This document shows positions 13,645-56,661 of a stretch of 61,344 bases of DNA, in pieces; position 1 is the first letter of the stretch, and each line of letters starts with the position of its first letter. A program made the position numbers and the translations under genes. The notes beneath the pieces were generated by a model. It was not told the origin of the DNA. It saw only the letters and a program-made list of their open reading frames with translations, and did no database searches. Source of the stretch: a virus (lineage: Duplodnaviria > Caudoviricetes); the IMG/VR virus record IMGVR_UViG_3300033153_010600, positions 1 to 61,344 of that record. One strand, 5' to 3'.

Positions 13645-13682
13645 ATGGTACCATGCAATTATGCTGAAAAGTGTGTTGCGAG
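13645..13682 (+). promoter_or_regulatory. Promoter + repeat-handle cassette, antisense to the ASCH 3' end
   Basis: TGGTACCAT then AAAGTGTGTTGCGAG (13668-82); the complement encodes the ASCH tail LATHFSA. Confidence 0.65.
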
Positions 13683-14114
13683 CTCTAGGATCTTTTTCTC
13701 CAGCCAGTTCGGCACATCCCAAAGCCCCAACGCTCCCTTGCATTGCACGGGCTGTTTCAACTTCCGCACTTTCCCCAATACCAAGCAAAGCGGGCCTTCG
13801 GTGTGTTCGTGTGCCAAGAACTCTTCGACCGTCGGGCCTTCGGGGGCAACCAAACGGTCGAGGGTTAACGAACAGTCATTCAGTCTCCGACGAACTACGT
13901 CGGGGCGTAAACAATTCAGCAACTCCGCCACCGCGACAATCGCTCCTGTCGGATATTCTCGCAGCTCATCGCGGCTCAGGTATTGCGTACCTTTACCCGC
14001 ATGGATTGCAAGCGGTCCACGGTAGGATGGCATGCGTTGCCAGCAGCGGTTCTCTACCCACTTCTCTGTGCCGATCATTGAGGCGTATGGTTGGGATATC
14101 GTGATGGCTTTCAT
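13659..14114 (-). CDS. ASCH domain protein
   Basis: MKAITISQPYA..KWVENR..YRGPLAIHAGK..GAIVAVAEL..KGALGLW. Confidence 0.9.
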   Translation of the reverse strand: MKAITISQPYASMIGTEKWVENRCWQRMPSYRGPLAIHAGKGTQYLSRDELREYPTGAIVAVAELLNCLRPDVVRRRLNDCSLTLDRLVAPEGPTVEEFLAHEHTEGPLCLVLGKVRKLKQPVQCKGALGLWDVPNWLEKKILELATHFSA

Positions 14115-14482
14115 CCGCTCGGCTCCGGAACACGCTTCTCCCGTGATCTCTTCTCGCGAAGCAGCTTCTTCGCCGCGAGCACGTGCTCGCGGAACGCCTC
14201 CCGCCCCGCCCCGAACGTCGCGTCGTTCGCCACCGCCACCAGGGCCAACAGCACGTGCGACACGGCTTCCGACAGGCACTCCCCGTAGAGGTGCCCGTAC
14301 ACGCGGTCGTTGGCGAGGTGCTCGTCCAACTCCTCGGCCGTCGCACGTATCTCCCTCGCCTCCGCGGCCCACGCCGCCTGCTGTTCCACGTCACGCCGGT
14401 CCACAAACTTGGACTCGGCCTTCCGCAGCCGGCGGAGTAGGGCTTTCAGCGCTCGCCGGGCCGTCCGCTCGTCAGGCGTCAT
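14111..14482 (-). CDS. Hypothetical protein
   Basis: 123-aa ORF overlapping both neighbours. Confidence 0.6.
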   Translation of the reverse strand: MTPDERTARRALKALLRRLRKAESKFVDRRDVEQQAAWAAEAREIRATAEELDEHLANDRVYGHLYGECLSEAVSHVLLALVAVANDATFGAGREAFREHVLAAKKLLREKRSREKRVPEPSG

Positions 14483-14693
14483 CTCGCTTCCCCCTGTGCG
14501 GATCGTTGTGGCGGAGCCCCGGCCCGCCCTCGCTCCGCGCGATCGCCTTGTAGATCTCTAGGCGGTGGACCGGTATCTCCTTGGGGGCGTTAATCCCAAG
14601 CCTCACCATGCCGTCCTTGATCTCCATGACAGTAATCGTGATGTCGTCACCGATCACGATCTTCTCGTTCTTTTTCCTCGTGAGCATCAGCAT
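14472..14693 (-). CDS. csrA: Carbon storage regulator CsrA
   Basis: MLMLTRKKNEKIVIGDDITITVMEIKDGMVRLGINAPKEIPVHRLEIY; GGAGGT RBS. Confidence 0.95.
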   Translation of the reverse strand: MLMLTRKKNEKIVIGDDITITVMEIKDGMVRLGINAPKEIPVHRLEIYKAIARSEGGPGLRHNDPHRGKRDDA

Positions 14694-16970: not shown

Positions 16971-17027
16971 TTGCTACGTCCACCGAGGAATAGTACAATG
17001 CATTCGTGCTAAGAAGTGTGTTGCGAG
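16971..17027 (+). promoter_or_regulatory. Promoter + repeat-handle cassette
   Basis: TTGCTA-17 bp-TACAAT, then GAAGTGTGTTGCGAG 17013-27; antisense to the end of 17009-17296 (SQHTS). Confidence 0.8.
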
Positions 17028-18534: not shown

Positions 18535-18591
18535 TTGCTACGTCTACCGGAGAATGGTGCAATACAATTATACTGAGAAGTATGTTGCGAG
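18535..18591 (+). promoter_or_regulatory. Promoter + repeat-handle cassette
   Basis: TTGCTA-17 bp-TGCAAT; GAAGTATGTTGCGAG 18577-91. Confidence 0.7.
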
Positions 18592-25677: not shown

Positions 25678-25972
25678 TTCGCAACACACTTCTCAGATTT
25701 CAGCCGTTGTCACTAGGTGAGGAGGATACGAAACTGACCGAGAGGCTGCTCTCGCAACACACTTCTCAGACTTCAGCCGTTGTCACGCCCGGATGATGGG
25801 CGTGAGGCGGTCCTATTTCTCGCAACACACTTCTCAGATTTTAGCCGTCGTCACCACACCCGCGCGGTTGACACTGGCCCCATCTCGGCTACTCGCAACA
25901 CACTTCTCGATTTTTAGCCGTCGTTACTAGCGACAAACGCCGGCGCGATCCCGCACTCTCGCAACACACTTC
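25678..25972 (-). CRISPR. CRISPR array A: 15-nt handle + 4 full repeats, 4 spacers
   Basis: Repeats at 25678, 25751, 25819, 25892 and half repeat 25958-72; TGCTATAAT on the minus strand at 25982-90 just upstream of the half repeat. Confidence 0.93.
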
Positions 25973-26228
25973 ATGCTCCCTATTATAGCAGCCTTGACGG
26001 CCGAGCGTCCATGGATTCCCGAAGGGAACCTAACTCCTACCCCCGCAACGATTTAGGGTTTCCGGCCGAAATTGCCCGGGAGAAGGTATAATAGGCATCG
26101 TGGACGCAAGATGACGATCGCCGAACTGCCCGATGGCGCGGCCGGGCTGCGAAAGCAGCATGGGATAGAAGTGTGTTGCGAGGTCGCTCCCTGTCCACCG
26201 GCCGCGTTTTTTTTGTGGAGGCTAGAGC

Positions 26229-33272: not shown

Positions 33273-33491
33273 GTGAGATACACGCTGTGGTTCCTGTCGT
33301 TGTTCATTGCCAGCATAGCTAGTTTCTGCGGCCTTATTTGCGCCTGGGCAGTAGCGGCCAACCTGGGCGGCTGGTGGTTGGTGGGAGCGTTGGCATGCCC
33401 GAACATTGCTATAATTGTCTTGTTGGGTCACATGCTGCAAGCCCGGCCGAATCGGCGTTGTCCAACGGGTTGCTCCCGTGACAACGGCTGA
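33273..33491 (+). CDS. Small membrane protein
   Basis: Two hydrophobic segments; stop lies inside the lone repeat. Confidence 0.5.
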   Translation: MRYTLWFLSLFIASIASFCGLICAWAVAANLGGWWLVGALACPNIAIIVLLGHMLQARPNRRCPTGCSRDNG

Positions 33492-33513
33492 AATTCGAGA
33501 AGTGTGTTGCGAG
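33478..33513 (+). repeat. Lone full CRISPR repeat
   Basis: GTGACAACGGCTGAAATTCGAGAAGTGTGTTGCGAG, 8 nt before ATG 33522. Confidence 0.9.
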
Positions 33514-36218: not shown

Positions 36219-37092
36219 ATGAGCAGATCGCAATGGGTCCGCGTCAGTCGACGCGAGCCTTGTCCGGTCTGTCATCCACAAGCCGGACTGGTGCCTTGTA
36301 ACTGGTCCTGAAGGATGTCGTACGGCCGTGATATGCGCCCGCGTCGAGAGCCCCAAGCGCTGCGGCGAGGCTGGCTGGCTCCACAAGCTGCGGGATGACT
36401 GGCGGAATTCGCCCCCGCCCAGACTCGATCCGAAGCCGGAGCGGCCAGAGCCGAAGCGGGACTTCGCGGCGTTCGCGGAGCTGTGCACGACACAGTTGCA
36501 CCGAGACGCCCTGGGGGCGTTTGCCGGGAAGATGGGGCTAAGCGTCGGCTCGCTCGTGCGGCTGGGGCTCGGCTGGTCGCTGGAACATAAGGCGTTCACG
36601 TTCCCAATGCGGCGGGGCTCCGACGGCAAGGTGGTGGGCATCCGGCTGCGTCTACGCAGCGGCCGGAAGCTGGCGGTCAAAGGCGGGAGGGAGGGGCTGT
36701 TTGTGCCGTCGGACACGCCGCGGACTGGCGAGCTGTACCTGCCGGAGGGGCCGACGGACACGGCGGCGCTGCTGGACATCGGCTGCGAGGCGGTAGGGCG
36801 GCCGAGTTGCAACGGCGGCATCCAACACATACTGTCGTTCATCGCGCGGTCGAAGTACGCCGGCATCTGCGTTGTGGCGGACGCGGACGCGCCGGGCCAG
36901 CAGTGGGCGAAGGTGTTGGCGGAAAAGCTGCTACCGTACGCCCCCCGGGTGTGGATCGTCACGCCGCCTGACGGACACAAGGACGTGAGAGACTGGGTGC
37001 GGGGGGGAGCGACAAAACGCAACATTGACGGCGCAGCCGTGCCGCAAGAAACTCGCAACACACTTCTTAGCACAAATGCATTGTACCATTAG
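36219..37092 (+). CDS. Primase (Zn finger + TOPRIM), frameshifted near 36275
   Basis: AGGAG + ATG 36219 MSRSQWVRVSRREPCPVC continues in another frame as HKPDWC..ICAR; EGPTDTAAL, VADADAPG, HKDVRDW. Confidence 0.8.
37052..37088 (-). promoter_or_regulatory. Promoter + repeat-handle cassette, antisense to the primase 3' end
   Basis: TGGTACAAT then GAAGTGTGTTGCGAG (37066-37052). Confidence 0.72.
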
Positions 37093-37122
37093 AGGCAGGA
37101 TGCGGCAATACAGGATAACCGA

Positions 37123-38782: not shown

Positions 38783-39009
38783 TCAACGGGGTCCTCGCAG
38801 CCCCAATGAGAGGCGAGAAGTACCATGACACCCAAACGGCAATCACGGCGCATCCGTCCCCGATCATGTGCAAGCATGACGGGTGACGGTCGCCGGCTGA
38901 GCGGGTCCGGGCAACTCTCGCTGAAGGCTCCTGAAACAGGCCGGATATGCCGTGAGCCCGGCCGACACACTTCGCCTGGTGCGGTGATTCATCGCCGCAC
39001 CAGGTTTTT
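38783..39009 (+). ncRNA. Candidate tracrRNA
   Basis: TGGTATAAT 38769-77 upstream; CTCGCAG (38794-800) pairs with TTGCGAG; CGACACACTTC (38963-73) pairs with GAAGTGTGTTG; terminator follows. Confidence 0.8.
38975..39009 (+). terminator. Intrinsic terminator
   Basis: 13-bp stem CCTGGTGCGGTGA/TCGCCGCACCAGG with TTCA loop, then TTTTT. Confidence 0.88.
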
Positions 39010-39014
39010 ATTCT

Positions 39015-40676
39015 GGCTGAAATTCAAGAAGTGTGTTGCGAGGCACGGGGCGACCTGGACACGTCACACCTCGTGACGACGGCTGAAATCTGAGAAGTGT
39101 GTTGCGAGACCGAATCTCACCGTAGAGAAGAGCCTCTTTATAGGGTGGCGACAACGGCTGAAATCTGAGAAGTGTGTTGCGAGCGAGCAAACAAAAACGA
39201 AAGGGAAAGGAGAACGACATGGCGACTACAAGACAAGCGTTGTTGGAGCTGAAGAGGCTGGCGGCATCGGCCGCCGACAACCTGTACCGCCGCATCGAGC
39301 TGTCGGCGCAGGTGATGAGCGACCTGGACTGGATTGCCCGCGAGCACGGCGGTTCCGACTTGAAGGCCCAAGACACGTTGCAGGATCAGTTCTTCAGGGA
39401 CCTTGGCGGGTTCATCTCCCTCGGCAAGCTGATTGCGATGTTTCGCAACGTGCCGCAGGAGACGTGGGCCGAGCTGAAGTACGACGTGGCGGCCGTCGAA
39501 GTCGTCTACGACGACCAGGCCATCGAGAAGACGGAGAAGGGGACCAAGACCGCCTGGAAGCCCATTGCGGAGGAGAGGGGCGAAAAGATCGAACGCCTTC
39601 AGCGGCAGATGTCTCAGGTCAACGAGCTGGCCGATAAGCAGCGTTCGGAAATCGACGTGCTGCGGGCGAAGGTTGAAGAGCTGACCCGCGAGAACGAGCG
39701 TCTTCGGGGGCGCGTCGAGGAGCTTCAACGACTGCTCGATAGGCAGGTCGTGCAAGTGTGACGGGAAGTGTGTTGCGAGGGCGAGAACCGGCTTCAGCAC
39801 GTGGTCCCCGCAAGAGGTGACAACGGCTGAAAGCGGAGAAGTGTGTTGTGAGGACGGGGCGATTGCGGGTTGTGACGACGGCTGAAATTGGAGAAGTGTG
39901 TTGCGAGCCGAGTCTGTCCCCGAGGGTGACAACGGCTGAAAATCGAGAAGTGTGTTGCGAGACACGGCGCCCGCGCCCGTCTCGACGCCGCGAGCGACGT
40001 GACAATGGCTGAAAATCGAGAAGTGTGTTGCGAGCACCCGGCTCACGTCCACGCCGCCCGGGCCGGCCCGGTGACAATGGCTGAAATCCGAGAAGTGTGT
40101 TGTGAGAAGGTCACCCACCCTCCGAGTGGTGACAACGGCTGAAATCGGAGAAGTGTGTTGCGAGACCTCCCAGCGCCGCCCGCCGGGGTCGGACAGCTCG
40201 CCCGTGACAACGGCTGAAAATCGAGAAGTGTGTTGCGAGCCGAATAGGTCGGTAAGCTTGGTTGGGTGGTGCTCTCGTGACGATGGCTGAAATTCGAGAA
40301 GTGTGTTGCGAGCAGACCCCAATCGTGCAAGACCGCGACACTAAGGCACGTGACGACGGCTAAAATCTGAGAAGTGTGTTGCGAGCCGACGAAGAATCCC
40401 GCCGTCGCGAGGGAGATGGCCGTGACAACGGCTGAAATCTGAGAAGTGTGTTGCGAGCTGCCATCGTTACCCTTTCAGTCTGGTTATGTTACCCGTGACG
40501 ACGGCTGAAATCCGAGAAGTGTGTTGCGAGGCTTCGGAGTAGGCCAGCCGCCCGTCCAGGTCCGGGGTGATGACGGCTGAAAGTCGAGAAGTGTGTTGCG
40601 AGTGTCCATGATGCAATCGCAGGGGACGCTGCTGGAGGCGCTGACGACGGCTGAAATCGGAGAAGTGTGTAACGAG
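39015..40676 (+). CRISPR. CRISPR array B: 17 repeats (2 partial), 15 spacers, one embedded gene
   Basis: Consensus GTGACRAYGGCTGAAA....AGAAGTGTGTTGCGAG; degenerate last repeat 40641-76; spacers 18-39 nt. Confidence 0.95.
39219..39761 (+). CDS. Coiled-coil protein embedded in array B
   Basis: AAGGAG RBS, 180 aa, C-terminal LRAKVEELTRENERLRGRVEELQRLL; repeats on both sides. Confidence 0.8.
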   Translation: MATTRQALLELKRLAASAADNLYRRIELSAQVMSDLDWIAREHGGSDLKAQDTLQDQFFRDLGGFISLGKLIAMFRNVPQETWAELKYDVAAVEVVYDDQAIEKTEKGTKTAWKPIAEERGEKIERLQRQMSQVNELADKQRSEIDVLRAKVEELTRENERLRGRVEELQRLLDRQVVQV

Positions 40677-40701: not shown

Positions 40702-41985
40702 ATGGCCATCGGAATTCTAGAAGTCAAGCTGGGGCGTCCGATCCAAATGCCAACGAAGCGGTTCCACCAGCTACTCAGGCAGGCCCGCCGCGATTGCTGC
40801 AAAGCACGCAACGCGGCCATGCTCCACTGGTATGTCTGGCGGCGAGAGCACGCGGATTGGGAGCCGGGAAAACCATACGAGGCGCCGAAAGCCAAGATTA
40901 TGCGAACTCGCAAACCGGCAGGCGAAGGGAAGAAGCCACCGAAGGACTCGCCGATTGCCCCTCGCCTATTTCTTAGCCGCGAACTCTACCACGCGGCAAC
41001 CGCGGCGGCGCGGAACCTGTCGGCGTCGCTCGCCTCGTCGTGTGTACAGGAGGTGATCGCCCGACTCAAGGCCAACACCCCTTACGACCACGACGGCGAA
41101 GCGAGGTGGGTATGGCAAGCAATCCTTGCGTCCGAAGTCAATCTGCCCACCTGGCGCGGCGGGCGCATCCCGATGCCCAAGCGGTGCTCGTCGCTCGGAT
41201 ACGACGGGGCCGTCAGCCAACCGTCGGCTGACGTGGCGAGGGCCTGCAAAAGCGGGTGCGTTTTGAAGTTTCAACTGCTGTCTAGGCTGAGCGGCTATAG
41301 GACGCTATCGCCCATCGTCCGACTGGACGCCGCCGACCTGACGCGGGGCAACCGGCGATTGCTGAGGCGTCTGGCGTCTGGCGAGGTACGTCTGGCAGAC
41401 AGCCAGATCGTCGAGAAAAAGGGCAAGTGGTTCGCCCAATTCTGCTACGAGGTGGCGGCCAACGCGATCGGCCTGCCAACGGATCAGGTGTTGACGCTAC
41501 TGCCGGCGGAGCCGGACGACAAGTGGCCGTTCGCGCTCGCATGGACCAAGGAGGATGGGAATGGGCGGGTGTGGAAGATTGGCAACGGGCGGCCGCTCGT
41601 GGCCGAATACCGCCGGGTAGTAGCCCGGCGCCGGGCGATCCGCTACCGCTACCAGGACGGGACGGGCAGCGGGCACGGGCGCCAGCGGTGGTACAAGGCG
41701 ATTCGTCCGATGGCTCACGCCGTGCGGGACATGCAGAACCGCTTTGAGAAGCAGACGATTGCGGACATCATCAAGCTGGCGATTCGTGAGCGGTGCGGCA
41801 CGGTCCTGTACCGCGAGCCGACGATGCCGGTCCGCAACTATTCGTGGTTTGCGGCCAAGGACGTGCCGTTTGACTGGACGAGTTTCGAGGCGAGGCTGCG
41901 GTTCAAGACGGAGACGCGCGGCCTGGCCTACGAGAAGGCGCGTATCGGGATGAAGGAATGGCGTCCAAGAAAAATCGCAAACTGA
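40702..41985 (+). CDS. cas12f: Cas12f-like effector, predicted nuclease-dead and C-terminally truncated
   Basis: Collinear motifs resembling AsCas12f1 as I recall it: RLASGEVRLADSQIVEKKGKWF, GSGHGRQR, LAIRERCGTV, FEARLRFKTE; no GIDLG Asp, no RuvC-II Glu in register, no Zn finger/RuvC-III; between two arrays. Confidence 0.85.
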   Translation: MAIGILEVKLGRPIQMPTKRFHQLLRQARRDCCKARNAAMLHWYVWRREHADWEPGKPYEAPKAKIMRTRKPAGEGKKPPKDSPIAPRLFLSRELYHAATAAARNLSASLASSCVQEVIARLKANTPYDHDGEARWVWQAILASEVNLPTWRGGRIPMPKRCSSLGYDGAVSQPSADVARACKSGCVLKFQLLSRLSGYRTLSPIVRLDAADLTRGNRRLLRRLASGEVRLADSQIVEKKGKWFAQFCYEVAANAIGLPTDQVLTLLPAEPDDKWPFALAWTKEDGNGRVWKIGNGRPLVAEYRRVVARRRAIRYRYQDGTGSGHGRQRWYKAIRPMAHAVRDMQNRFEKQTIADIIKLAIRERCGTVLYREPTMPVRNYSWFAAKDVPFDWTSFEARLRFKTETRGLAYEKARIGMKEWRPRKIAN

Positions 41986-42278
41986 TCCTCGACTGCGAGA
42001 TATGCGGGGAGCCGGTAGTGCTGTCGCCGTCGCGGTACGTCGCGCTCGTGCGGGCTGGCGAGCGGCCGCGGTGCCGGAAGAACGGGTGCGAGAGGTTGTG
42101 CGGTGCGAAAAGTGCGGGGACCTCTCGCGGCACGCAAGTACTTGCCGGGGCGAGGGTTTCGCCGCTGGTAGTGCAATGGCCCCACACGAAGAGGGGCAAC
42201 AAGAATGGAGCCCTCGCAAAGCTGGCCGTAAAGCGAGACGGCGCATGGCGTTACGAGGGGTGCCGTGACGATGGCTGA
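41958..42278 (+). CDS. Possible small Zn-finger ORF overlapping the effector end
   Basis: CEICG...CRKNGC; runs through the probable leader, so it may be spurious. Confidence 0.35.
   Translation: MASKKNRKLILDCEICGEPVVLSPSRYVALVRAGERPRCRKNGCERLCGAKSAGTSRGTQVLAGARVSPLVVQWPHTKRGNKNGALAKLAVKRDGAWRYEGCRDDG
42085..42264 (+). promoter_or_regulatory. Probable leader of array C
   Basis: Inverted repeat GCGAGAGGT...ACCTCTCGC, second CCCTCGCAAA, and GTAA..TTACG just before the first repeat. Confidence 0.6.
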
Positions 42279-43946
42279 AATCGGAGAAGTGTGTTGCGAG
42301 ACACGAGTTCAGGCGATGTATATACTGGTATGAGCAAGTGACGATGGCTGAAATCGGAGAAGTGTGTTGCGAGGGTCCGACGCCTCCGCAATCTGCTTGG
42401 CGTAGCCGAGTGACAACGGCTGAAATCGGAGAAGTGTGTTGCGAGTGCGAGCGTCCTCCACCCCGAGGCTCGGGTACCTCCCGTGACGACGGCTGAAATC
42501 GGAGAAGTGTGTTGCGAGGCACGTCTCTGGCCTCGCCAATCGCCGCGTTCTTGCCGTGACGATGGCTGAAAATCGAGAAGTGTGTTGCGAGAGAACCGTC
42601 AAGTCCGGGTCGCCACCGTGCGACGACGGCTGAAAGCGGAGAAGTGTGTTGCGAGGCGAATACGAGAGACGTGGGCGCCGACCGTTGGCCGCGTGATGAC
42701 GGCTGAAAGCGGAGAAGTGTGTTGCGAGCTGGTAGCGGCAGGCGTGTATCGCCCGAAAGACGGGCGTGACGCGGCTGAAATCCAAGAAGTGTGTTGCGAG
42801 TAGAGTCTGCATAGGCTCAGCGTGTGACAACGGCTGAAAGTCAAGAAGTGTGTTGCGAGCCTGCCGATCGCCCATTGCGTCTCACTCCTTTCGGGTCGTG
42901 ACGATGGCTAAAATCCGAGAAGTGTGTTGCGAGAAGGTCGCCCACCCTCCGAGTGGTGACGACGGCTGAAATTCGAGAAGTGTGTTGCGAGAATGAAGAG
43001 GGAAGGCAGGGGTTACGATCCCATCCGGCGTGATGATGGCTGAAATCTGAGAAGTGTGTTGCGAGGGGTGGACGTGCCGGCGGCGACGATCACGGTGGAC
43101 GGCGTGACGATGGCTGAAATCGGAGAAGTGTGTTGCGAGTCGAGTAGCTGCCCGGGGGCTTGTAGGCACCGGCCCGCGTGACGATGGCTGAAAATCGAGA
43201 AGTGTGTTGCGAGAACCACGCAATCAGGGAGCTGGCCTGGGAGGGTGTCAAGTGACGACGGCTGAAATCGGAGAAGTGTGTTGCGAGGCCGAAAACCGAA
43301 GACGATCAGCGTGCGATAGCTGGTCGTGACGATGGCTGAAATCTGAGAAGTGTGTTGCGAGAGCACGTACGGGCTCACACCCGGCGGTTGACTCCAGCGG
43401 TGACGACGGCTGAAATCTGAGAAGTGTGTTGCGAGCCCTCCCGTGTGACGAGCCGGATGACCTATACGCAGGTGACGACGGCTGAAAATCAAGAAGTGTG
43501 TTGCGAGTCGCCAACCCGGGGATACGTTCAACGGACAGCTACGGACGTGACGATGGCTGAAATTCGAGAAGTGTGTTGCGAGTTGATCGAGAAGATGTTG
43601 GTGGCTGGCCAGCCGGCGTGTGACGATGGCTGAAATTCGAGAAGTGTGTTGCGAGTCGCGGGCCTTCAGGAGGGCAGTTAGCCGTGATTGCAGTGATGAC
43701 GGCTGAAATCTGAGAAGTGTGTTGCGAGGCGTCGATCAGCGCCAGCGGGGCCGGCCCGTGGAATGCGTGACGATGGCTGAAATCTGAGAAGTGTGTTGCG
43801 AGAAGCCAAGAGGCAATGCGAGCACGGCGAATGGGGGCGTGACAACGGCTGAAAGCGGAGAAGTGTGTTGCGAGGCTGCCCAATGTGCCCTTGTATTTGG
43901 CGAGAGAACGCGTGCCAACGGCTGAATCCAAGAAGTGTGTCGCGAG
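42265..43946 (+). CRISPR. CRISPR array C: 24 repeats, 23 spacers
   Basis: 36-nt repeats at ~73-nt period; degenerate last repeat 43912-46. Confidence 0.97.
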
Positions 43947-44460: not shown

Positions 44461-44516
44461 CTCGCAACATACTTCGCAGCACAACTGCATGGTACCATTC
44501 CTCGGCGGACGCAGGG
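44461..44516 (-). promoter_or_regulatory. Promoter + repeat-handle cassette
   Basis: CGTCCGCCGAGGAATGGTACCAT...GAAGTATGTTGCGAG on the minus strand. Confidence 0.65.
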
Positions 44517-44626: not shown

Positions 44627-45313
44627 ATGAAATGTTCGGCCGTAGTCCTATCCTTCAATCGCGTGCCCAACCTGGGCCGTATCGTCGAGAACCTCCGGCG
44701 GCACGACTGGATAGACGACATCGTGATATGGCACCAAGGCGAGCGGCTGCCGCCCGACTTCGAAGTGTGTTGCGAGCCTATCTGGTATGGCGTCCGCGAA
44801 ATCCACGCGCACAACCGCCTGCGCATGGGGCGATTCGACGCGATGGACCATTGCGCCCACGACGCGGTGCTCGTCCAGGACGACGACACGCTGCCCCGCA
44901 ACCTCGACGCGGCGTGGCAAGCCTGGCGCGAGGAGCAGTCCCGGATCGTTGCCCTGCTCGACCGTGGGCACCTGATGACGGACCGCTGGCGGCACTGGGG
45001 CGATTGCCATGAGGTGCTGCTCGGCTGGGGCGCAATCCTCGATCGGCGGTGGCGGAACGTGTTCAGGCTATGGGAGCACAGCTACGGCGTTGACGAGTTG
45101 CTAGAGCGGAAGGCCGACCGTATCTTCTCAATCCTCCAGCGGCGGCACCACACCGTCCTGCTGGCTGACTACGAGAAGCTACCCGGGGCGGACTCGAACG
45201 ACGCGGCGTGGAAGCAGCCGGACCATGACGCGACGACGAGAGAGGCGAGAGAGCGGTGCCTGAACGGCATATGTGGAATGGGATTGCAGCGCCACGAGTA
45301 CCGGATACGATAA
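44627..45313 (+). CDS. GT-A glycosyltransferase-like protein
   Basis: AVVLSFNR..DIVIW..VQDDD..LGWGA..ADRIF; in-frame handle at 44762-76. Confidence 0.75.
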   Translation: MKCSAVVLSFNRVPNLGRIVENLRRHDWIDDIVIWHQGERLPPDFEVCCEPIWYGVREIHAHNRLRMGRFDAMDHCAHDAVLVQDDDTLPRNLDAAWQAWREEQSRIVALLDRGHLMTDRWRHWGDCHEVLLGWGAILDRRWRNVFRLWEHSYGVDELLERKADRIFSILQRRHHTVLLADYEKLPGADSNDAAWKQPDHDATTREARERCLNGICGMGLQRHEYRIR

Positions 45314-46038: not shown

Positions 46039-46041
46039 CCG

Positions 46042-46626
46042 ATGCCAGGCTCGCAACACACTTCAACTTCCCATCATAGCGGAAAGACGGTTGCCGACAA
46101 GTCATCCGAGGGAAACGGCGAAGAAATCGACCGGCTGAAATCGGAAATCGCCGCACACAAGGAAAGCCTGAAAACATGCCGCAAGACGATTGCGTCGCTC
46201 GAACAGTCTCTGGAAACGGCCAACGCTGCGATTTGGCGAATCGTAGATGAGGTCTGGTCGGTGCGAACTTGCAAGGAAAACGTCGAGCTGGGCGAGACAG
46301 TCGAGGCATTGGTTGAAAACCACAAAGCGTATCTCGCGTTGATCAGGTCGAGGAGGCAAGAGGCTGCAAGAATATGCAAGGAAGCACGCGAGATTCAATC
46401 CGCGTTGCGGTTCGTCGGGCGTGCTGCCAGTTCAGGGTCGAGCGGTATGATGTTCGGATCAGCAGAGCACTTGGTACTCAGCATCGACGCAATCATGCGC
46501 CAGGCGTGTCGAGATATTGACGGTTTGATTGCCAGTTCGACTGGCGTCGTAAACGGCAGCCAAGATCGCTTGATGCGGGACGCGGTGGCAGAACTCCCGC
46601 AACACCACTCGCAACACACTTCATAA
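46042..46626 (+). CDS. Coiled-coil hypothetical protein
   Basis: Both ends contain antisense handle cassettes (46050-64, 46608-22; SQHTS). Confidence 0.6.
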   Translation: MPGSQHTSTSHHSGKTVADKSSEGNGEEIDRLKSEIAAHKESLKTCRKTIASLEQSLETANAAIWRIVDEVWSVRTCKENVELGETVEALVENHKAYLALIRSRRQEAARICKEAREIQSALRFVGRAASSGSSGMMFGSAEHLVLSIDAIMRQACRDIDGLIASSTGVVNGSQDRLMRDAVAELPQHHSQHTS

Positions 46627-46660
46627 CTGTATTATACCATGTCCTCAGCGGACGCAGCAA
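46608..46660 (-). promoter_or_regulatory. Promoter + repeat-handle cassette
   Basis: TTGCTG-18 bp-TATAAT, 8 nt, GAAGTGTGTTGCGAG. Confidence 0.8.
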
Positions 46661-46685: not shown

Positions 46686-47600
46686 ATGCGGGCAATAATA
46701 ATATACGACGTGGACGGTTTCGCGTACCACCGGCGGGCGGTAGCATTGAAAAAGTACGCGCCGCCCGACGCGGACGTGCGGCTTGTCAGGACGCCCGACT
46801 ACTGCGGCCCCGGCGACGCGGACGTAGTGGTGCTTTTGGACTATATCTGTCTGGGCATGGTTCAGGGCATGACGCCGGCCCGAGTGCCGCTCGTTTGCAC
46901 ATTTTCGGCGGACCACCGGCGGCGGGAGAAACAGTGGCGGCACACCTGCGAGCACGCCGACTGGGTGATAGCGTTGAGCCGGGAGCGGTACGAGGCGGAG
47001 CCGCGATTCGGCAACACCTGCTGCATTGCCAACGGCGTGGACCTCGACGATTTTGGTGCAGACGTACCGATCGAGGGCCGGCCAGACAAGGCGCTGTGGA
47101 TCGGCCAGGACGGGCGAGGGGACAACAAGGGGCTGATCTCCGTCCTGTCGCCGCTGCGCAAGCTGGCCGAGCGGAGCGGGTTCGCCTGCGACTTCCGGGC
47201 GGTGGGCCCTCGCGGATTTTCTACGGATCGCCTGCGGAGTTGGTATAATAGCGGGAGTTACATCGTGTGCGCTAGCCGCTCGGAGGCGACGGCAAACACG
47301 GTGATGGAGGCAGCCGCTTGCGGCTGCGTGCCGGTGAGCACGCCGGTTGGTACCCTGACGGATTGGGGCCAGGATGGCGAGAACTGCGTGCTCGTGAAGG
47401 ATCGGTCGCCGGAGGCGTTCCTGAAAGGACTGCAACGGGCGAAGGACGCACGCCTCCGGCTGGCCGCCGGCACGATGGAGGCCGTGGCGAGGTATGACTA
47501 CCGCCGCGTGGCGGAGCTGTACTGGGAGGATGTAATTCGGCCAATCGCCGAAGGGCGCCGGCCGGAACAATTCTGCTACCTCTCGCAACACACTTCCTGA
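46686..47600 (+). CDS. GT4-like glycosyltransferase
   Basis: IANGVD..CASRSEATANTVMEAAACGCVPVST. Confidence 0.85.
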   Translation: MRAIIIYDVDGFAYHRRAVALKKYAPPDADVRLVRTPDYCGPGDADVVVLLDYICLGMVQGMTPARVPLVCTFSADHRRREKQWRHTCEHADWVIALSRERYEAEPRFGNTCCIANGVDLDDFGADVPIEGRPDKALWIGQDGRGDNKGLISVLSPLRKLAERSGFACDFRAVGPRGFSTDRLRSWYNSGSYIVCASRSEATANTVMEAAACGCVPVSTPVGTLTDWGQDGENCVLVKDRSPEAFLKGLQRAKDARLRLAAGTMEAVARYDYRRVAELYWEDVIRPIAEGRRPEQFCYLSQHTS

Positions 47601-47739
47601 CTATATTATACTATATCCACCGAGGAAATTTTGTAGGAGAAAGAGCCGTGGAGCCAGAATTGAGTTCGGAAGCCTGAAACCACCTTAAGAACTCGGCCGT
47701 TAAGGCTGCTATAATGGGGAGTATGAAGTGTGTTGCGAG
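47582..47739. promoter_or_regulatory. Back-to-back promoter + handle cassettes
   Basis: Minus: TATAAT 47610-05, handle 47596-82. Plus: TGCTATAAT 47707-15, handle 47725-39. Confidence 0.8.
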
Positions 47740-48000: not shown

Positions 48001-48021
48001 GCGGGCGAAAGGAGAAGCGGT

Positions 48022-49537: not shown

Positions 49538-49760
49538 GCCGCACCATCATCGCCGGCAACGGCCACAAGATCGGCTACGTCCATATTCCTTGCACCGGCG
49601 GGCGGAGCGTAATGCACGCACTGGGGCTTTTGCCGAGCCACGCAACCGCGGCGGAATTGAGGCGTCGGCACCCGGACCTGACGCATGTCGTTGCCATAGT
49701 CCGCTCCCCGTTTACGCTGCTCGTCTCGTGGTACAATCGGATCTCGCAACACACTTCAGC
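49534..49760 (+). pseudogene. Truncated sulfotransferase-family gene
   Basis: YVHIPCTGGRS..HATA..IVRSPFTLLVSWY, then runs directly into a handle cassette. Confidence 0.6.
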
Positions 49761-49802
49761 ATCTTATCATAGCGAAAAAGACGGTCGAGGACAAGTCATC
49801 CG

Positions 49803-49882
49803 AGAAGTGTGTTGCGAGCGGGCGAGCTCGTCGAAGGTCACGCGGCGTGGCAACGGCTAAAATTCGAGAAATGTGTTGCGAG
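49803..49882 (+). CRISPR. One-spacer mini-array
   Basis: Handle 49803-17, 29-nt spacer, full degenerate repeat 49847-82; opposite-strand cassette at 49743-71. Confidence 0.7.
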
Positions 49883-49897
49883 CGAGTGAGCGAGCGA

Positions 49898-51967: not shown

Positions 51968-52149
51968 CATGGCTAAAATTACGATTACACTTACAGATAC
52001 GCGAGAAGGTGAAATTTGCATTCAAGTGGTCACCACTCCGCCGGTGAAACCAGGCGACAAAAGTACGCCTGCCCAAAAAATAGCGGCAGCATGCCTGGCA
52101 GCAATCGCAGTGCGACACGATAGCGGGAGCCCAAACTAGGGGAAGTCGG

Positions 52150-53187
52150 ATGGCGAAGATCATAGTCGACCCTTATGTCCCCGGCAACGACAACCGGAAA
52201 TGCCGCAAGATGCGCCGGCTGGTTTACCTGGCGTGGATCGCACGCGACCTGGGGCACGAGGTGGCCGTCCACTACGACCGGGACGAGATCGACGCCCTAC
52301 GGCAGCGCACCGCCTACAATGGCAGGACGGACTTCAGCTACCTCGACCTGCTCGGATCGTTCCGCAAGTGTGTTGCGAGCGAGGACGCCGACCTGCTGAT
52401 CTGCTCGGAGGAGACGGCCCTGGGGCAGCAGCGGCCGGACTGCAAAGTGGCGGCATGGCGGTCGGTACTCGGTGGCGGACACAGGGCCGTCGAGCACCAC
52501 GACAAGTTTGACCTGCTCTGCGGCTATGCGTTTTCGCAGCAGGACTGGACGAGGAAGACAACCATAGAGGGAAAGCTGCGGCACGATACGCCCGTGCGGA
52601 ATAGGCTGGGCGACAAGTGGTTTTCAGTCCCGTGGCTGCCCTTTGAGTGCACGCTGCATCAGCTTCACAAGGACGGCCTATGGAAGGCGTATCTGCGGGA
52701 CGACCTGGACGCGATCCGTGAGCGATATGGGAGCGCCAAGAAGAGACGAGTGTTCGGGTTCGCGGGATACCCATGGCCATGGCGGACGCGGATTGCCGGC
52801 ATTTTCGACGGCGACGAGCGGTTCGTCTTCAGGTGGGCGGACTGCGCCGAGAAGGCCATGCCGCCCGCCGAATATCTGCGGTGGCTCAGCGAGTGCGAGG
52901 TGTCCATGTGCCTGCCGGGCGACACCTGGAAATGCAGCCGGTTCGCCGAGTCGGTGATGATGGGCGTCCCCGTAGTGCATCCCCGCGGCGTGGTCGACCT
53001 GACGCCGCCGTTGTCTAGCCTGAACGCGATACTGGTTGGGGAGTGGGAGGAGTTGGCAGACATGCGGGTGGCTGATCTCGACCTGATCGTTGCCAACGCT
53101 GACAAGGCGTACCGCGAGGGATGGGGACTTCGCGGGCAGTTCTCGCAACACACTTCTATGACTGCATTATACCATAAAAGAGCCTAG
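52150..53187 (+). CDS. Glycosyltransferase-like protein (GT-B/exostosin-like C-terminus)
   Basis: FGFAG..EYLRWL..SMCLPGDTWKCSRFAESVMMG. Confidence 0.6.
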   Translation: MAKIIVDPYVPGNDNRKCRKMRRLVYLAWIARDLGHEVAVHYDRDEIDALRQRTAYNGRTDFSYLDLLGSFRKCVASEDADLLICSEETALGQQRPDCKVAAWRSVLGGGHRAVEHHDKFDLLCGYAFSQQDWTRKTTIEGKLRHDTPVRNRLGDKWFSVPWLPFECTLHQLHKDGLWKAYLRDDLDAIRERYGSAKKRRVFGFAGYPWPWRTRIAGIFDGDERFVFRWADCAEKAMPPAEYLRWLSECEVSMCLPGDTWKCSRFAESVMMGVPVVHPRGVVDLTPPLSSLNAILVGEWEELADMRVADLDLIVANADKAYREGWGLRGQFSQHTSMTALYHKRA

Positions 53188-53367
53188 CGGGTGGCCACCG
53201 CGTGCCGATGCCAAAGTACGACCGGCACATGGACTTTGCGGCCCCGCAATCGCGGTAGCTCGCCGTAGACTTCCTCGGGGAGCAGGAGCGGCTCGACTAC
53301 GTGTCCCGGCAGAAGCCGAAGACGAGCCGCTTTATGGTATAATGCAGTCATAGAAGTGTGTTGCGAG
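53142..53367. repeat. Perfect 37-bp inverted repeat of the promoter + handle cassette
   Basis: TTTATGGTATAATGCAGTCATAGAAGTGTGTTGCGAG at 53331-67 (+) and 53178-42 (-). Confidence 0.9.
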
Positions 53368-53424
53368 GTAAACAATATGCCAACATGAGGCACACCAACC
53401 TCGGACAGAAACAAGATCAGGGAG

Positions 53425-54432: not shown

Positions 54433-55615
54433 CAACCAGTGTAAATTGCTGATCGTGTACGACGTGGGGCCGCCTCATTGCTCCGGCTGGGCCCAGTACA
54501 GACACGCCGAGGGACTGAGTCGTTACTCGCCGAAGAACGTGACCGTCCACATCGTACCGCTCGGTACCTACTTGCAGCAGCAGGAAACGTGGCTTTCGCA
54601 GTACGCGGCCGTGTACGTCATTTCGCTATACCACGCCCAGCCGCGAAAGGGTATTGGACGTCTTGCGGCATGCGTCGCCTCCCACGCCTGGACGCATAAG
54701 CGGCTAGACAAATCCGACTGGCGCACCTACGGCGTCAACAAGGACCGCTGCCATTCGGTTGGGGCGCAGCGGCTCCGCGGACTATATGCCGCCGTGTGCC
54801 GCAACGAGGCGCTAGGCAAGTGGGCTCGCTCACTCGGCGCGAACGTGGCCGTCATCCCGGCCGGCGTCGACTGCGAGATATTCAAGCCCGGTGAGTTCCG
54901 TCACGACACGAAGCGGCTCCGCGTGGGGTGGTGCGGCCAGCTTGGCGGGATCACGAGCTTCAAGGGCTATGACGAAGTGCTCCAGCCGTTGCGGCACCTG
55001 TTCCAGCAGTACGATTGGCGCGTCAACACCAGGACGCACGAGAACGCCTACTCTGCGGAGCGCATGGCCGACTGGTATCGCAGCCTGGACGTGTTCGTTT
55101 GCACGAGCAGTGCCGAAGGAACGCCCAATCCGGCGATGGAAGCCGCGGCGTGCGGCGTTCCCGTCGTCGCGACCGACGTGGGGCAGCTGGCCGACTGGGA
55201 CGACTTGCGGGAGACGGGCATGATCGTGCCGGACTGGGGCAACCAAAGGGAAGCCCAGATTGTTGTCAACAAGATAGCTGGACGGCTGACCCTACTGGAG
55301 GAGCCGGCGGTAAGGCGGGAGTGCCGGGAGCGGCTGCTGCAATCCGTCGCGGACCGATACGATTATCGTGTCGTGACCCCGGAGACGCTGAATTTCTTGC
55401 TGGCGGGCATCAAAAAGCCGGTGGCGCCTGTGGCCCAGACCACCCTCCAGGCCGACGCGGCGAGGTGGGACTACATGCGGCGGCGGCTAACCACGAAGCG
55501 ACGCGACGCGAAGGGCGGCAAGCTGTGGCGGTTCGAGCCTCTCCGCAACTACCACGGGGACACGGTTGACGAGGCCATGGACAAAGCGATTGCCGACGAG
55601 CAGGAGGGCGGGTGA
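54419..55615 (+). CDS. GT4-like glycosyltransferase
   Basis: PAGVD..LDVFVCTSSAEGTPNPAMEAAACG..ATDVG. Confidence 0.88.
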   Translation: MMKRNNQCKLLIVYDVGPPHCSGWAQYRHAEGLSRYSPKNVTVHIVPLGTYLQQQETWLSQYAAVYVISLYHAQPRKGIGRLAACVASHAWTHKRLDKSDWRTYGVNKDRCHSVGAQRLRGLYAAVCRNEALGKWARSLGANVAVIPAGVDCEIFKPGEFRHDTKRLRVGWCGQLGGITSFKGYDEVLQPLRHLFQQYDWRVNTRTHENAYSAERMADWYRSLDVFVCTSSAEGTPNPAMEAAACGVPVVATDVGQLADWDDLRETGMIVPDWGNQREAQIVVNKIAGRLTLLEEPAVRRECRERLLQSVADRYDYRVVTPETLNFLLAGIKKPVAPVAQTTLQADAARWDYMRRRLTTKRRDAKGGKLWRFEPLRNYHGDTVDEAMDKAIADEQEGG

Positions 55616-56628
55616 TGCCGAGCGTCCTTGTGCGTTACGACGTGGAAAACTGGGCCTTTCACCGCCGTGCCCTCGGCCTGCAACGGTATCGCCGGCCCGG
55701 CGACCAAGTGACGATCGCCAGCGACTACGCCTACGGCATGGGCGTAGCCGACGGCGAGTACGACGCCGTGCTCCTGTGCGACATGACATCCAGCTTCCCC
55801 GGTTCGCGGCCCCACTGCCGGGCCGGGAGAATAGTGCGGCTCGTCGGGTCGCACGGGTGGTTGTACCCCGAATACGATCCCGACGACTGGCGGACGAAGG
55901 GAGTGAACGGCCGCAACTCCAACCAAGCCGCGTCGATCGTGGAAGACTGCGACACGGTGGTCGTCTATAGCGCGGAGCAAAAGCGGTTCTTCGACTCGAT
56001 CCACAGCGACGTGCGGCTCATGCCGTACTCGATCGACACAAATGTGTTCAGACCGCGTAGGATAACGGCCGAATTCGAGAAGTGTGTACGGAGGCTCCGC
56101 GTGGGTTGGTGCGGCCAGCTTGGCGGCGGCGAAGGGAGCTTCAAGGGATTCGTCGAGGTCATGGTGCCCGTGATCGCCAGGCTCGGCGAGCAATTCGAGT
56201 GGTCGATCAATCACCGGGACTTCCGTACGGCGCTGAGCGGGCCGGACCTGGCCAAGTGGTATCAGTCGCTCGACGTGTTCCTTTGCACCAGCGTGGCGGA
56301 GGGGGGGCCGCAGACGGTATTCGAGGCCGCGGCGTGCGGATGCGTGCCCCTGTCGACGGCGGTCGGGCAGGTGGCGGACTGGCGGTGGATGCGCGACAAG
56401 AGCCTGACGACGCCCCCGCCGGCGAACGCGGAGGACGCGGCTCGCGTGGTAGGCTGGTTCGTCGAGAGCCTTCGCTACATGGACGCCAACAGGCAGATGC
56501 GCGACCGGTGGAGCCAGGACGCCGTCCGCGCCGTCCGACGCGACTACGACGCGGCGGAGTTAGTGCCCCAGCACCTGGCAATTATCACGGGGCCCGCTTG
56601 CTCGCTTGCAACACACTTCTCAGCATAA
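55612..56628 (+). CDS. GT4-like glycosyltransferase
   Basis: LDVFLCTSVAEGGPQTVFEAAACG; internal degenerate repeat 56061-93; antisense cassette 56605-38 encodes the tail LATHFSA. Confidence 0.88.
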   Translation: MMPSVLVRYDVENWAFHRRALGLQRYRRPGDQVTIASDYAYGMGVADGEYDAVLLCDMTSSFPGSRPHCRAGRIVRLVGSHGWLYPEYDPDDWRTKGVNGRNSNQAASIVEDCDTVVVYSAEQKRFFDSIHSDVRLMPYSIDTNVFRPRRITAEFEKCVRRLRVGWCGQLGGGEGSFKGFVEVMVPVIARLGEQFEWSINHRDFRTALSGPDLAKWYQSLDVFLCTSVAEGGPQTVFEAAACGCVPLSTAVGQVADWRWMRDKSLTTPPPANAEDAARVVGWFVESLRYMDANRQMRDRWSQDAVRAVRRDYDAAELVPQHLAIITGPACSLATHFSA

Positions 56629-56661
56629 CTGTATTGTACCGTATCCTTGGAGGGAAGGATA

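Follow-up and report, generated by a model that had tools for sequence, protein, structure and literature searches.

The genome of a tailed phage carries, both in its CRISPR arrays and scattered among its genes, many copies of a 15-nucleotide (nt) sequence, GAAGTGTGTTGCGAG, which is the 3' end of its own CRISPR repeats. The window analyzed here is the whole IMG/VR virus record IMGVR_UViG_3300033153_010600 (61,344 bases, estimated 67% complete). It encodes a Cas12f-like module that consists of a tracrRNA (trans-activating CRISPR RNA) of ~225 nt, a coiled-coil protein, an effector of 427 amino acids (aa), a Zn-ribbon open reading frame (ORF), and arrays. We read the 15-mer as the 5' handle of the CRISPR RNAs (crRNAs) of this phage-borne, Cas12f-derived system, and the dispersed copies as tags that would make the phage's own genes guides. 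We give this reading an even chance. That own genes may become guides is supported structurally, by the motif excess, the identity of the motif with the repeat 3' end, its covariation with the tracrRNA, its association with promoters, its insertion into genes, and a truncated effector family.

Copies of the handle inside and outside the arrays

The handle matched the window 77 times at two or fewer mismatches, whereas 0.11 matches were expected and 0 of 100 shuffles reached 77. At one mismatch or fewer there were 72 matches, and the reversed-pattern control gave 0. An earlier note on this DNA had listed 14 sites with a promoter before the 15-mer. The whole-genome scan recovered the handle at all 14 sites, on the strand named. 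Nine of these copies, including 25958, are perfect and five have one mismatch (13668, 18577, 44461, and 56605 among them).

Four tandem arrays hold 46 of the 77 copies, each as the 3' end of a 36-nt CRISPR repeat, and 31 copies are located elsewhere. The repeat has the form GTGACRAYGGCTGAAA-(4–5 variable nt)-GA-handle. Comparison of the repeats bore out the view that the 15-mer is their near-invariant 3' part; the 5' half is variable. There are 48 full repeats and 43 spacers of 18–39 nt, mostly 36–39 nt. The minus-strand array (25678-25972) contains 5 handle copies, and the arrays at 39028-39183, 39765-40676, and 42286-43946 contain 3, 14, and 24, respectively. Among the 31 dispersed copies, 26 have at most one mismatch.

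The arrays are closely joined to genes. The first unit of array A is a bare handle straight after the stop codon of the coiled-coil gene, and a degenerate last repeat closes the array 25 nt before the effector ATG. A DUF1064 gene (43912-44289; Pfam E 9e-29, domain beginning at residue 17) takes its only in-frame start (GTG 43912) and its first ~12 codons from the degenerate repeat that ends array B. The last repeat of the minus-strand array abuts a Dam-type methyltransferase gene (24746-25687). This array, read from 25972 to 25678, begins with a promoter and a handle, an arrangement that had been proposed for the start of an array. One short 22-nt spacer is duplicated with one mismatch, at 40107-40128 in array A and at 42934-42955 in array B.

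Pairing of the handle with the tracrRNA

The tracrRNA was located at 38785-39010. Its 3' anti-repeat, CCGACACACTTC, occupies 38963-38974 (12 nt) and is followed by an intrinsic terminator at 38976-39010. The tracrRNA was compared with those of related loci, which are numbered here from L009 (W is the window). The RNAs of W, L009, L016, L010, and L018 were aligned and were strongly conserved, and the motif and the anti-repeat were also found in L013, L015, and L021. RNAalifold gave 33 pairs on the alignment, 13 of them with compensatory changes. The Rfam scan of the tracrRNA gave no match, and the tRNA scan gave nothing.

The handle varies between loci. It is GAAGTGTGTTGCGAG in W and L018, GAGAGCATGTTGCAAG in L009, GAAACGTGATGCGAG in L014 and L020, (C/T)GGGTGTGATGCGAG in L015 and L021, GAGGTGTGATGCGAG in L016, and CAGGAATGATGCGAG in L010. 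In all six systems, nt 1–11 of the handle pair with the cognate anti-repeat (66 of 66 cells, G-U counted). Double compensatory changes were observed at 6 of the 11 positions. Non-cognate combinations of handle and anti-repeat paired at a mean of 8.3 of 11 positions, with a maximum of 10 (n = 28). Because handle and anti-repeat change together across the six systems, the 15-mer is, judging from its sequence, exactly the part of the crRNA on which the tracrRNA docks, in agreement with what had been claimed for it.

The 5' half of the repeat is not complementary to the tracrRNA. In L009 and L014, it differs between arrays of one locus, and the handle is shared. The 3' end of the handle, GC(G/A)AG, is conserved in all relatives although it lies outside the paired nt 1–11.

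Promoters in front of dispersed handles

A -10 box was scored as a TATAAT-like hexamer with at least 5 of 6 matches, A2 and T6 being present. Such a hexamer ended 6–14 nt upstream in 12 of the 30 handles that lack the 5' half of the repeat, against a background of 1.1% at 200,000 randomly chosen positions (binomial test, P 2e-16). The two remaining sites of the 14 listed, 13668 and 44461, have TGGTACCAT in the same register as the other -10 boxes. A -10 box before the handle, as proposed for these sites, was thus confirmed.

The distance from the -10 box to the handle is 8, 9, or 13 nt. Spacings of 8–9 nt belong to the TATAAT and TATGAT types, for which the predicted start is approximately the first G of the handle. 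A six-member cassette family, TGGTACAATGCAnTTGTGCTGA, has the 13-nt spacing and is predicted to add ~7 nt at the 5' end. The predicted RNA starts therefore coincide with the handle or precede it by a few nt. A search for sequencing runs that contain 44001-54000 listed no RNA run and one DNA run, with a 0.05 share of the words. TTGCTA or TTGCTG -35 boxes with 17-nt spacing were present at 17013, 18577, and 46608. A generic promoter/terminator scan of 43.9–60 kb was not above shuffles; its two-hexamer promoter search recovered 2 cassettes, with 5 promoters found against 4.2 expected. The generic scan missed cassettes because most of them are extended -10 (TGnTAnAAT) promoters. The cassettes share the TGgTATAAT promoter type with the tracrRNA. 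A seventh member of the TGGTACAATGCA...GTGCTG family, at 23559-23580 (+), is a deletion derivative in which 12 handle nt are missing, so that ...GTGCTGC is joined to GAG; it is antisense within the minus-strand block.

Eleven of the 14 promoter cassettes are antisense and three are sense, one of which starts the minus-strand array. Twelve antisense copies, including the full repeat at 57871-57906, were placed relative to genes: eight lie within the last 19–46 nt of a called ORF, three lie 2–28 nt past a stop codon, and one is unclear. The C-terminal tails LATHFSA, SQHTS, and RNTLLSTNALYH, each followed by the stop codon, were confirmed in seven ORFs. The description of the cassettes as mostly antisense at gene 3' ends holds for the 14 sites for which it was made. 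That list was incomplete, and 19 of the 31 dispersed copies are sense, in mRNA leaders or within genes.

Outward-facing handle pairs were found in six intergenic regions. Full or partial solitary repeats are located just 5' of genes at 33478, 36118, 38264, 49847, and 59206. Bare or degenerate handles are found in leaders at 2534, 2578, 6703 (+), 6868 (+), 18236 (-), 23186 (-), 24127 (-), 26168 (+), 47979 (+), and 49804. Two leader handles are preceded by paired hexamers, TTGACA-16-TATCGT-8 at 18236 (-) and TTGACA-17-TAGACT-23 at 23186 (-). The solitary repeat 57871-57906 sits between the convergent genes 56904-57884 (+) and 57909-58925 (-), and it is flanked by a 37-nt inverted repeat (57828-57965, 78% complementary).

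Handles written into phage genes

Homologues without the handle were found for four tagged sites in three phage genes, so handles and cassettes have been written into real phage genes. Homologues of the glycosyltransferase 46686-47600 are 64–74% identical to it up to ...QFCYL and then have native tails (EREPW..., EHETW...), where the phage protein has SQHTS and the stop codon. The SQHTS tail was present in 0 of 9 aligned homologues. For gene 52150-53187, all nine aligned homologues end in ...AYREGWSLRGQ(F)xQ(I/M)LKRLGL. The phage protein is the same up to RGQF and then ends with SQHTSMTALYHKRA and the stop codon. In both genes tested, homology to the cassette-free homologues stops exactly at the handle. 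The putative guide of the 53142 cassette is antisense to AYREGWSLRGQ, the most conserved motif of that family.

Two handles lie within coding sequence. The handle at 52365 replaces a variable loop at equal length and was absent from nine of nine aligned homologues. The handle at 44762 lies in a loop insertion of ~6 aa and was absent from a 71%-identical homologue and 10 others (11 aligned).

These comparisons indicated that the handle is followed by real phage coding sequence and not by a foreign spacer, and that cassette-free versions of the genes exist. The earlier note had taken the adjacent phage sequence as the spacer and had regarded cassette-free relatives as possible targets. The first part stands in that coding sequence does follow the handle, and cassette-free homologues of two tagged genes were found; with an effector that is probably nuclease-dead, "targeting" can only mean binding. 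The contigs listed for the cassette-free homologues P0051 and P0116 have the same longest length, 92,657 nt, and no contig of 92,657 nt is among those of the 49 effector clusters described below.

The effector and its accessory proteins

The effector matched AsCas12f chains in a phmmer search (E ~2e-9 (1.8e-9), residues 212-408). A profile of 20 sequences of the effector family matched 7wju at E 1.9e-15 and also 9i8y, 9nzq, 7l48, and 7c7l; it matched the "nuclease-deactivated Cas12f" 9n9c at E 2.4e-6. The Atlas model of the effector gave template modeling (TM) scores of 0.67–0.76 to Cas12f/TnpB clusters and also aligned with Bacteroidota clusters of 364–365 aa. NCBIfam guided_TnpB gave only E 0.0036, below the family cut-off, and there was no Pfam match.

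The alignment reaches only about residue 368 of the 422–432 in the AsCas12f chains, and the phage effector ends 19 aa later. All 49 effector homologue clusters are 479 aa or shorter and end after RuvC-II. In Cas12f and TnpB, the zinc finger and the following RuvC-III aspartate are located in the segment that this effector misses. The effector ORF has no TNB zinc finger and no RuvC-III, and a complete D-E-D triad was not found. The column aligned to the RuvC-I Asp, which was placed by weak pairwise alignment, is D in 11 of 20 sequences. Because the C-terminal RuvC-III/TNB part is absent and the RuvC-I Asp column is weakly kept, the effector is probably naturally nuclease-dead.

The Zn-ribbon ORF (ORF2) overlaps the effector stop by 28 nt (41958-41985) in the -1 frame, and it is kept at the protein level in 10 other loci. 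The overlap is 28–55 nt in most loci (more if the first start codon is ambiguous), and the frame is -1 in 10 of 11 loci. The ORF2 ATG is embedded in conserved ...EW(R) codons, and the overlap contains an A5–A7 run, e.g., in L009, L013, L014, L016, L018, L019, and L020. A AAA AAA/C heptamers are present in the overlaps of L014, L018, and L020. The overlap may be a programmed frameshift giving a fusion of ~525 aa, or it may mark a conserved split protein. PDB and Pfam profile searches did not support ORF2 as the detached TNB/RuvC-III part; the best E was 2.9, to an unrelated zinc finger.

The coiled-coil protein had tblastn matches in 10 other loci. Pfam, NCBIfam, and Atlas returned only coiled-coil noise for it and no informative family. 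A Cas1 family search of the 61-kb record, 67% complete, found none; cas2 and cas4 were not searched. Y1 transposase and Sigma70_r2 had no match in the record.

Related loci

In every locus, the effector gene is preceded by a repeat or handle, as are the coiled-coil gene and the gene that follows the array wherever these can be seen. Handles outside the arrays of relatives carry each relative's own handle sequence. A bare copy is found at position 131 in L009 and one at 1363 in L016, at the stop of the coiled-coil gene; L020 has at least five short units after the array. In L015 and L021, a TTGACG-17-TAAATT-6-nt-handle cassette is located upstream of the tracrRNA.

No close relative of this phage was found in IMG/VR, where the terminase, gene 52150-53187, and homologue P0051 were searched. 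The 41 IMG/VR contigs that contain the 15-mer were rejected as relatives; each has a single copy, and these are chance matches.

Positions of the features and gene layout

Table 1. Handles, cassettes, arrays, and module genes in the window
Feature	Position	Strand	Orientation	Details
Two bare handles	2534..2592	-	sense	44 nt apart
Cassette	13646..13682	+	antisense	TGGTACCAT-13 nt-AAAGTGTGTTGCGAG; last codons of minus-strand ORF 13659-14372 (LATHFSA, stop)
Cassette	16971..17027	+	antisense	TTGCTA-17-TACAAT-13-handle; 3' end of ORF 17009-17296 (SQHTS, stop)
Cassette	18535..18591	+	antisense	TTGCTA...TACAAT, one-mismatch handle; 28 nt past stop of ORF 18620-19039
Minus-strand array	25678..26003	-		TATAAT promoter (9 nt) and bare handle (25958-25972), then 4 full repeats
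Solitary full repeat	33478..33513	+		Upstream of PDDEXK (DUF3799) gene 33597-34529
Solitary or partial repeat	36118-36153	+		Leader or unit end
Cassette	37052..37108	-	antisense	3' end of Toprim-like gene 36328-37092 (tail RNTLLSTNALYH, stop)
Solitary or partial repeat	38264-38299	+		Leader or unit end
tracrRNA-like noncoding RNA	38785..39010	+		~225 nt; extended -10 promoter TGgTATAAT (hexamer 38772-38777); conserved blocks
Mini-array	39007..39183	+		3 repeats, first degenerate; directly after tracrRNA terminator; last repeat 35 nt before next ATG
Coiled-coil accessory protein	39219..39761	+		180 aa; between tracrRNA and effector in all relatives
CRISPR array A	39765..40676	+		14 handle copies; between coiled-coil gene and effector
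Cas12f-like effector	40702..41985	+		427 aa; ends just after RuvC-II region
Zn-ribbon ORF2	41958..42278	+		106 aa; CxxC...CxxxxC; runs into first repeat of array B
CRISPR array B	42265..43946	+		24 repeats
Cassette	44461..44497	-	antisense	TGGTACCAT, one-mismatch handle; end of small ORF downstream of DUF1064 gene
Bare in-gene handle	44762..44776	+	sense	Encodes FEVCCE; loop insertion of gene 44627-45313
Cassette	46050..46100	-	antisense	TTGTCG-16-TATGAT-8-handle; 11 nt past stop of gene 45313-46038; near-copy of 49743 cassette
Cassette	46608..46660	-	antisense	TTGCTG...TGGTATAAT-8-handle; 3' end of ORF 46042-46626 (SQHTS, stop)
Cassette	47582..47612	-	antisense	TATAAT-8-handle; replaces native C-terminus of glycosyltransferase 46686-47600 (SQHTS, stop)
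Cassette	47694..47739	+	sense	TATAAT-9-handle; near-copy of 25958 cassette; outward-facing pair with 47582 (-)
Cassette and mini-array	49743..49882	-/+	antisense (cassette)	Cassette 49743-49794 (-) back to back with two-unit + strand mini-array: bare handle 49804 and full repeat 49847-49882, the latter 15 nt short of methyltransferase gene 49898-50518
Bare in-gene handle	52365-52379		sense	Encodes (R)KCVAS; gene 52150-53187
Inverted cassette pair	53142..53367	-/+	antisense/sense	Identical cassettes as 37-nt perfect inverted repeat, handles outward; 53142-53178 (-) antisense into gene 52150-53187; 53331-53367 (+) sense into glycosyltransferase 53437-54432
Cassette	56605..56641	-	antisense	CGGTACAAT-13-handle (one mismatch); 3' end of glycosyltransferase 55615-56628 (LATHFSA, stop)
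Solitary or partial repeat	57871-57906	+		Leader or unit end
Solitary or partial repeat	59206-59241	-		Leader or unit end

The record contains tailed-phage genes (large terminase, portal/head-morphogenesis fusion, tail fibers) and genes for a helicase, a PDDEXK nuclease, RecT, and several DNA methyltransferases. According to codon-usage calls and hand-added ORFs, the genes are directed leftward at 1–25.7 kb, rightward at 26.2–57.9 kb, and leftward beyond. A dense 14-kb cluster rich in glycosyl- and methyltransferases occupies 44.6–58.9 kb. Eight of the 12 antisense handle copies fall in this cluster, and homologues of at least two of its genes recur together on other long contigs (92,657, 92,947, and 74,809 nt).

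The PDDEXK (DUF3799) nuclease and RecT at 33597-35807 form a RecET-like recombination module. Short-patch copying of cassettes by this module could occur in principle, as an idea only. At 27131-31512, four consecutive genes consist of 63-nt (21-aa) tandem repeats, the first with a leucine-rich-repeat match; they are a paralogous cluster of leucine-rich-repeat proteins in the phage. A second repeated element, the palindromic hairpin GGGGGAAGGGTCGGC-nnn-GCCGACCCTTCCC, has three copies at 2478-2510, 26685-26717, and 44564-44596 (6 strand-matches vs 0.01 expected). Two of them adjoin handles, 2534 (-) and 44461 (-).

Possible roles of the handle-tagged RNAs

In type V systems, a crRNA consists of the handle and the following sequence, and the protospacer-adjacent motif (PAM) lies where the repeat 3' end lies in the array. 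Since a type V guide needs only the handle and what follows it, a promoter 8–13 nt before a bare handle would be a complete one-unit crRNA gene. Within an mRNA, a handle would serve as a docking site for the tracrRNA. Like an array crRNA, each tagged RNA could pair with the tracrRNA over the same 11 base pairs (bp), and for this reason it might load into the effector and use the phage sequence next to the handle as its guide. We consider the chance that handle-tagged RNAs both pair with the tracrRNA and are taken up by the effector to be even or slightly better. The outcome would be RNA-guided DNA binding, since the effector, as predicted, cannot cut. The bound DNA may be handle-free homologous alleles, such as those of co-infecting relatives, in which the PAM side is no longer occupied by the handle. 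By the same logic, the handle at the PAM position would protect the phage itself. If the PAM tolerates GC(G/A)AG, binding at the RNA's own locus would shut off its own promoter. The guides may bind cassette-free relatives or repress their own promoters, and RNA tagging and selfish spread are further candidate roles.

Binding to cassette-free relatives fits the TnpB-like geometry, in which the flank is the guide, and the conserved motif under the 53142 guide. Taken further, the phage genome could be a guide library. The cassettes would then resemble scaffold-less TnpB ends, each guide being directed against the allele that lacks the cassette; during co-infection, cassette-free relatives would be marked or silenced and, with RecT and the exonuclease, would receive copies of the cassettes. 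Alternatively, the system would be a genome-wide RNA-guided timer of the phage's own promoters. We regard this extension as less likely than not.

A number of results weigh against guide use. When the 43 spacers were compared with the window and 13 related loci by blast, only chance matches of 10–18 nt were found besides the duplicated spacer. Array B had no match in 50,697 phage records. In the L010 phage (37.7 kb, 95% complete, effector 40% identical), a single array holds all 15 handles; because this phage has the system without dispersed handles, the genome-wide spread is lineage-specific and not essential to the system. The conserved C-termini truncated by cassettes look like tolerated damage as much as design. 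The segment after the 44762 handle, one of the two in-gene handles, is poorly conserved. The predicted handle/tracrRNA duplex (-17.7 kcal/mol) was equaled by 36 of 500 shuffles (-14.3 ± 2.0 kcal/mol). For dCas12a, a guide that presents its PAM-distal face to RNA polymerase is a weak roadblock. Silencing of competitor genes would look inefficient, since antisense 3'-end guides present this face to the sense RNA polymerase. The probable loss of nuclease activity, too, was deduced from sequence alone.

Other searches for targets also gave nothing above chance. The duplicated 22-nt spacer, 1 of the 43, had 0 matches in GTDB species genomes and 0 in IMG/VR. In a six-frame comparison at the protein level, 36 spacers (at least 30 nt) scored the same against the phage's own genes as shuffled controls did. 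PAM-proximal seeds of all 77 guides matched the phage genome at about chance level (10-mers, 18 vs 9.0; 11-mers, 5 vs 2.3; 12-mers, 1 vs 0.6), and most of the seed matches were leader-to-leader similarity.

A special case of the guide reading is a cis-acting timer. Here, the 3' end of the handle would satisfy the PAM, and the dead effector would return to the DNA just downstream of the promoter from which its guide came. As effector and tracrRNA accumulate, all tagged promoters would be turned off, among them the antisense ones opposing auxiliary genes. A nuclease-dead effector would pay no lethal cost for self-targeting, and a one-base 5'-G target-adjacent motif has been described for another dCas12f (PMC13472631). 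The conservation of GC(G/A)AG beyond the paired nt 1–11, the promoter type shared with the tracrRNA, the handles and repeats that precede module genes in relatives, and the lack of trans targets elsewhere in the genome (the 11-mer seed counts above) are consistent with such a timer. Yet the arrays would silence themselves, and to our knowledge every CRISPR array known so far has a repeat free of a PAM. Alternatively, the conserved GCGAG could pair with the invariant tracrRNA block ACUCUCGC or contact protein. On balance, we find self-repression rather unlikely.

The handle might also act on RNA only. Docking of the tracrRNA, alone or together with the effector, on phage mRNAs and antisense RNAs would set processing sites and 5' ends within polycistronic transcripts, or would affect stability and translation. 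The many sense copies among the dispersed ones suit this explanation, and so do the full repeats or handles that lie 1–83 nt before the start codons of at least 12 genes. In all relatives, arrays are co-oriented with and abut downstream genes. The degenerate terminal repeats are those before genes (38285, 40662, 43932, 47979, and 25678), and the + strand at 43.9–60 kb has no excess of intrinsic terminators. However, a duplex of 11 bp is short as a substrate for RNase III, and no processing enzyme was identified. The strong promoters on antisense handles in ORF ends and the bare handles in coding loops would also be left unexplained, and we judge an RNA tag to be improbable.

We hold the same opinion of functionless spread, in which insertions like miniature inverted-repeat transposable elements, or gene-converted ones, would simply be tolerated at ORF ends, in loops, and in intergenic DNA. 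There are near-identical copies (the 53142/53331 inverted pair of 37 nt, 25958 and 47725, 46050 and 49743) and the six-member TGGTACAATGCA...GTGCTGA family with its handle-deleted copy at 23559. The insertions either cut conserved C-termini short or lie in variable loops, their spread is lineage-specific, and the phage has genes for RecT and a PDDEXK nuclease. On the other side, neither a transposase nor Cas1 was found in the 67%-complete record. The handles are near-perfect (26 of 31 with at most one mismatch) although their flanks have diverged, and the spacing between promoter and handle is kept. Because handles stay near-perfect while flanks diverge, purifying selection on the tracrRNA-pairing nt is suggested.

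Two further explanations were considered. The tagged RNAs, the dead effector, and the tracrRNA could be an RNA anti-CRISPR that soaks up or mis-programs a host type V-F nuclease sharing the repeat. Solitary repeat units have been described as RNA anti-CRISPRs (PMC10651486), and a phage dead Cas9 with its own tracrRNA has been proposed to sequester crRNAs (PMC11656645). Decoy levels would be high, given the number of strong promoters. However, a pattern scan of 185,579 species genomes, which has limited sensitivity, found no relative of the effector, and a decoy would not need 43 diverse spacers and two conserved accessory proteins. We consider a decoy very unlikely. The other explanation, raised as the alternative in the earlier note, is a DNA operator: a phage DNA-binding protein would recognize the 15-mer at +1 to +15, and the likeness to the repeat would be secondary. 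The motif does lie at or just after the predicted starts of 14 promoters, with outward-facing inverted pairs in six intergenic regions. It is asymmetric, though, the spacing within pairs ranges from 46 to about 330 bp, and copies also occur in coding loops and in promoterless full repeats. Above all, the dispersed copies in each relative follow the handle that matches its tracrRNA, changing along with the anti-repeat. An operator is thus hardly credible.

Comparison with known systems

The phage module resembles type V-F Cas12f systems, e.g., AsCas12f (PDB 7wju, 8j12), in its miniature effector with sequence and fold similarity, its long tracrRNA, the pairing of a 3' anti-repeat with the 3' part of the repeat, crRNAs in which the handle precedes the spacer, and its arrays. 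Unlike them, the phage effector stops after RuvC-II, and a separate Zn-ribbon ORF and a coiled-coil protein are conserved. The module is also phage-encoded, its handle is dispersed genome-wide, and no cas1 was found in the record.

For the omega-RNAs of TnpB and IscB, Meers et al. reportedly showed in 2023 that the guide is the DNA flanking the element end, so that only element-free alleles are recognized. In the phage, the scaffold would instead come in trans from the tracrRNA, the inserted DNA is ~15–60 nt, and no active nuclease and no transposase were found.

Natural C-terminally truncated, nuclease-dead Cas12f homologues, some of them beside arrays, have been described to bind DNA by an RNA guide (PMC13472631). 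The dCas12f-sigmaE of that account is alike in being a truncated dead Cas12f, and the phage family profile matched the "nuclease-deactivated Cas12f" 9n9c. It is described with an extracytoplasmic function sigma gene adjoining the effector, whereas the phage neighbors are the coiled-coil protein and the Zn-ribbon ORF, with no Sigma70_r2 in the record. It uses single chimeric guide RNAs and no tracrRNA, as described there, whereas the phage has a separate tracrRNA and large arrays. The system is presented as bacterial, and the account gives it no phage context or dispersed handles (PMC13472631).

TldR proteins (10.1101/2023.11.30.569447) are described as dead proteins of the TnpB/Cas12 lineage, partly phage-encoded, that bind DNA by an RNA guide. 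They are described with one adjacent omega-like guide against a host promoter, without arrays, tracrRNA, or a multi-copy handle; the phage, in contrast, has 43 spacers and a tracrRNA in trans. Noncanonical crRNAs, as reported by Jiao et al. 2021 (PMC8224270), arise when repeat-like mRNA segments pair with the tracrRNA and the flank becomes the guide. The 31 extra-array copies, complementary to the anti-repeat, would by sequence give transcript segments of this kind. The matches described in PMC8224270 are fortuitous and imperfect and involve Cas9, whereas the phage has ~31 near-perfect copies, 14 promoters, and a dead type V effector.

Isolated repeats or arrays with 1–2 spacers are also described in phage genomes (Racr, PMC10651486; mini-arrays, PMC11656645), and roles as anti-CRISPRs or in inter-virus competition have been proposed for them in these accounts. 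Those elements, as described, mimic host repeats and use host Cas proteins. The repeats of this phage, in contrast, match its own system, are far more numerous, and have the phage's own coding sequence as "spacer". The crlRNA/CreR elements (10.1101/2023.03.03.530964, 10.1101/2023.03.10.532045) and Cas12m silencing (PMC11013384) are alike in that repeat-like units direct binding without cleavage, and repression. The accounts of crlRNA/CreR describe one or two units that partly match cas or toxin promoters, whereas the trans seed matches of the phage guides are at chance level.

In the literature searched, we found no phage that scatters its own type V handle behind promoters and into its own genes. 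Nor was a precedent found there for the use of CRISPR parts as a guide library or a timer.

Implications

On a conservative view, the analysis adds a phage-borne dead Cas12f family that is associated with arrays and a tracrRNA and has two conserved accessory proteins. It also adds a conserved frame-overlapping split of the effector and a clear case of repeat fragments written into coding sequence. If the guide reading is true, the phage system joins the dead Cas12f and TnpB DNA binders, the noncanonical guides derived from mRNAs, and the flank-as-guide logic of TnpB. A 15-nt tag together with a tracrRNA in trans may convert any transcript into a guide for an effector of 427 aa plus 106 aa, which would be of practical interest for compact CRISPR interference and RNA-sensing tools. 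If the dead effector is loaded with the tagged transcripts, the phage would be the first natural case of a virus with its own genes hard-wired as CRISPR guides.

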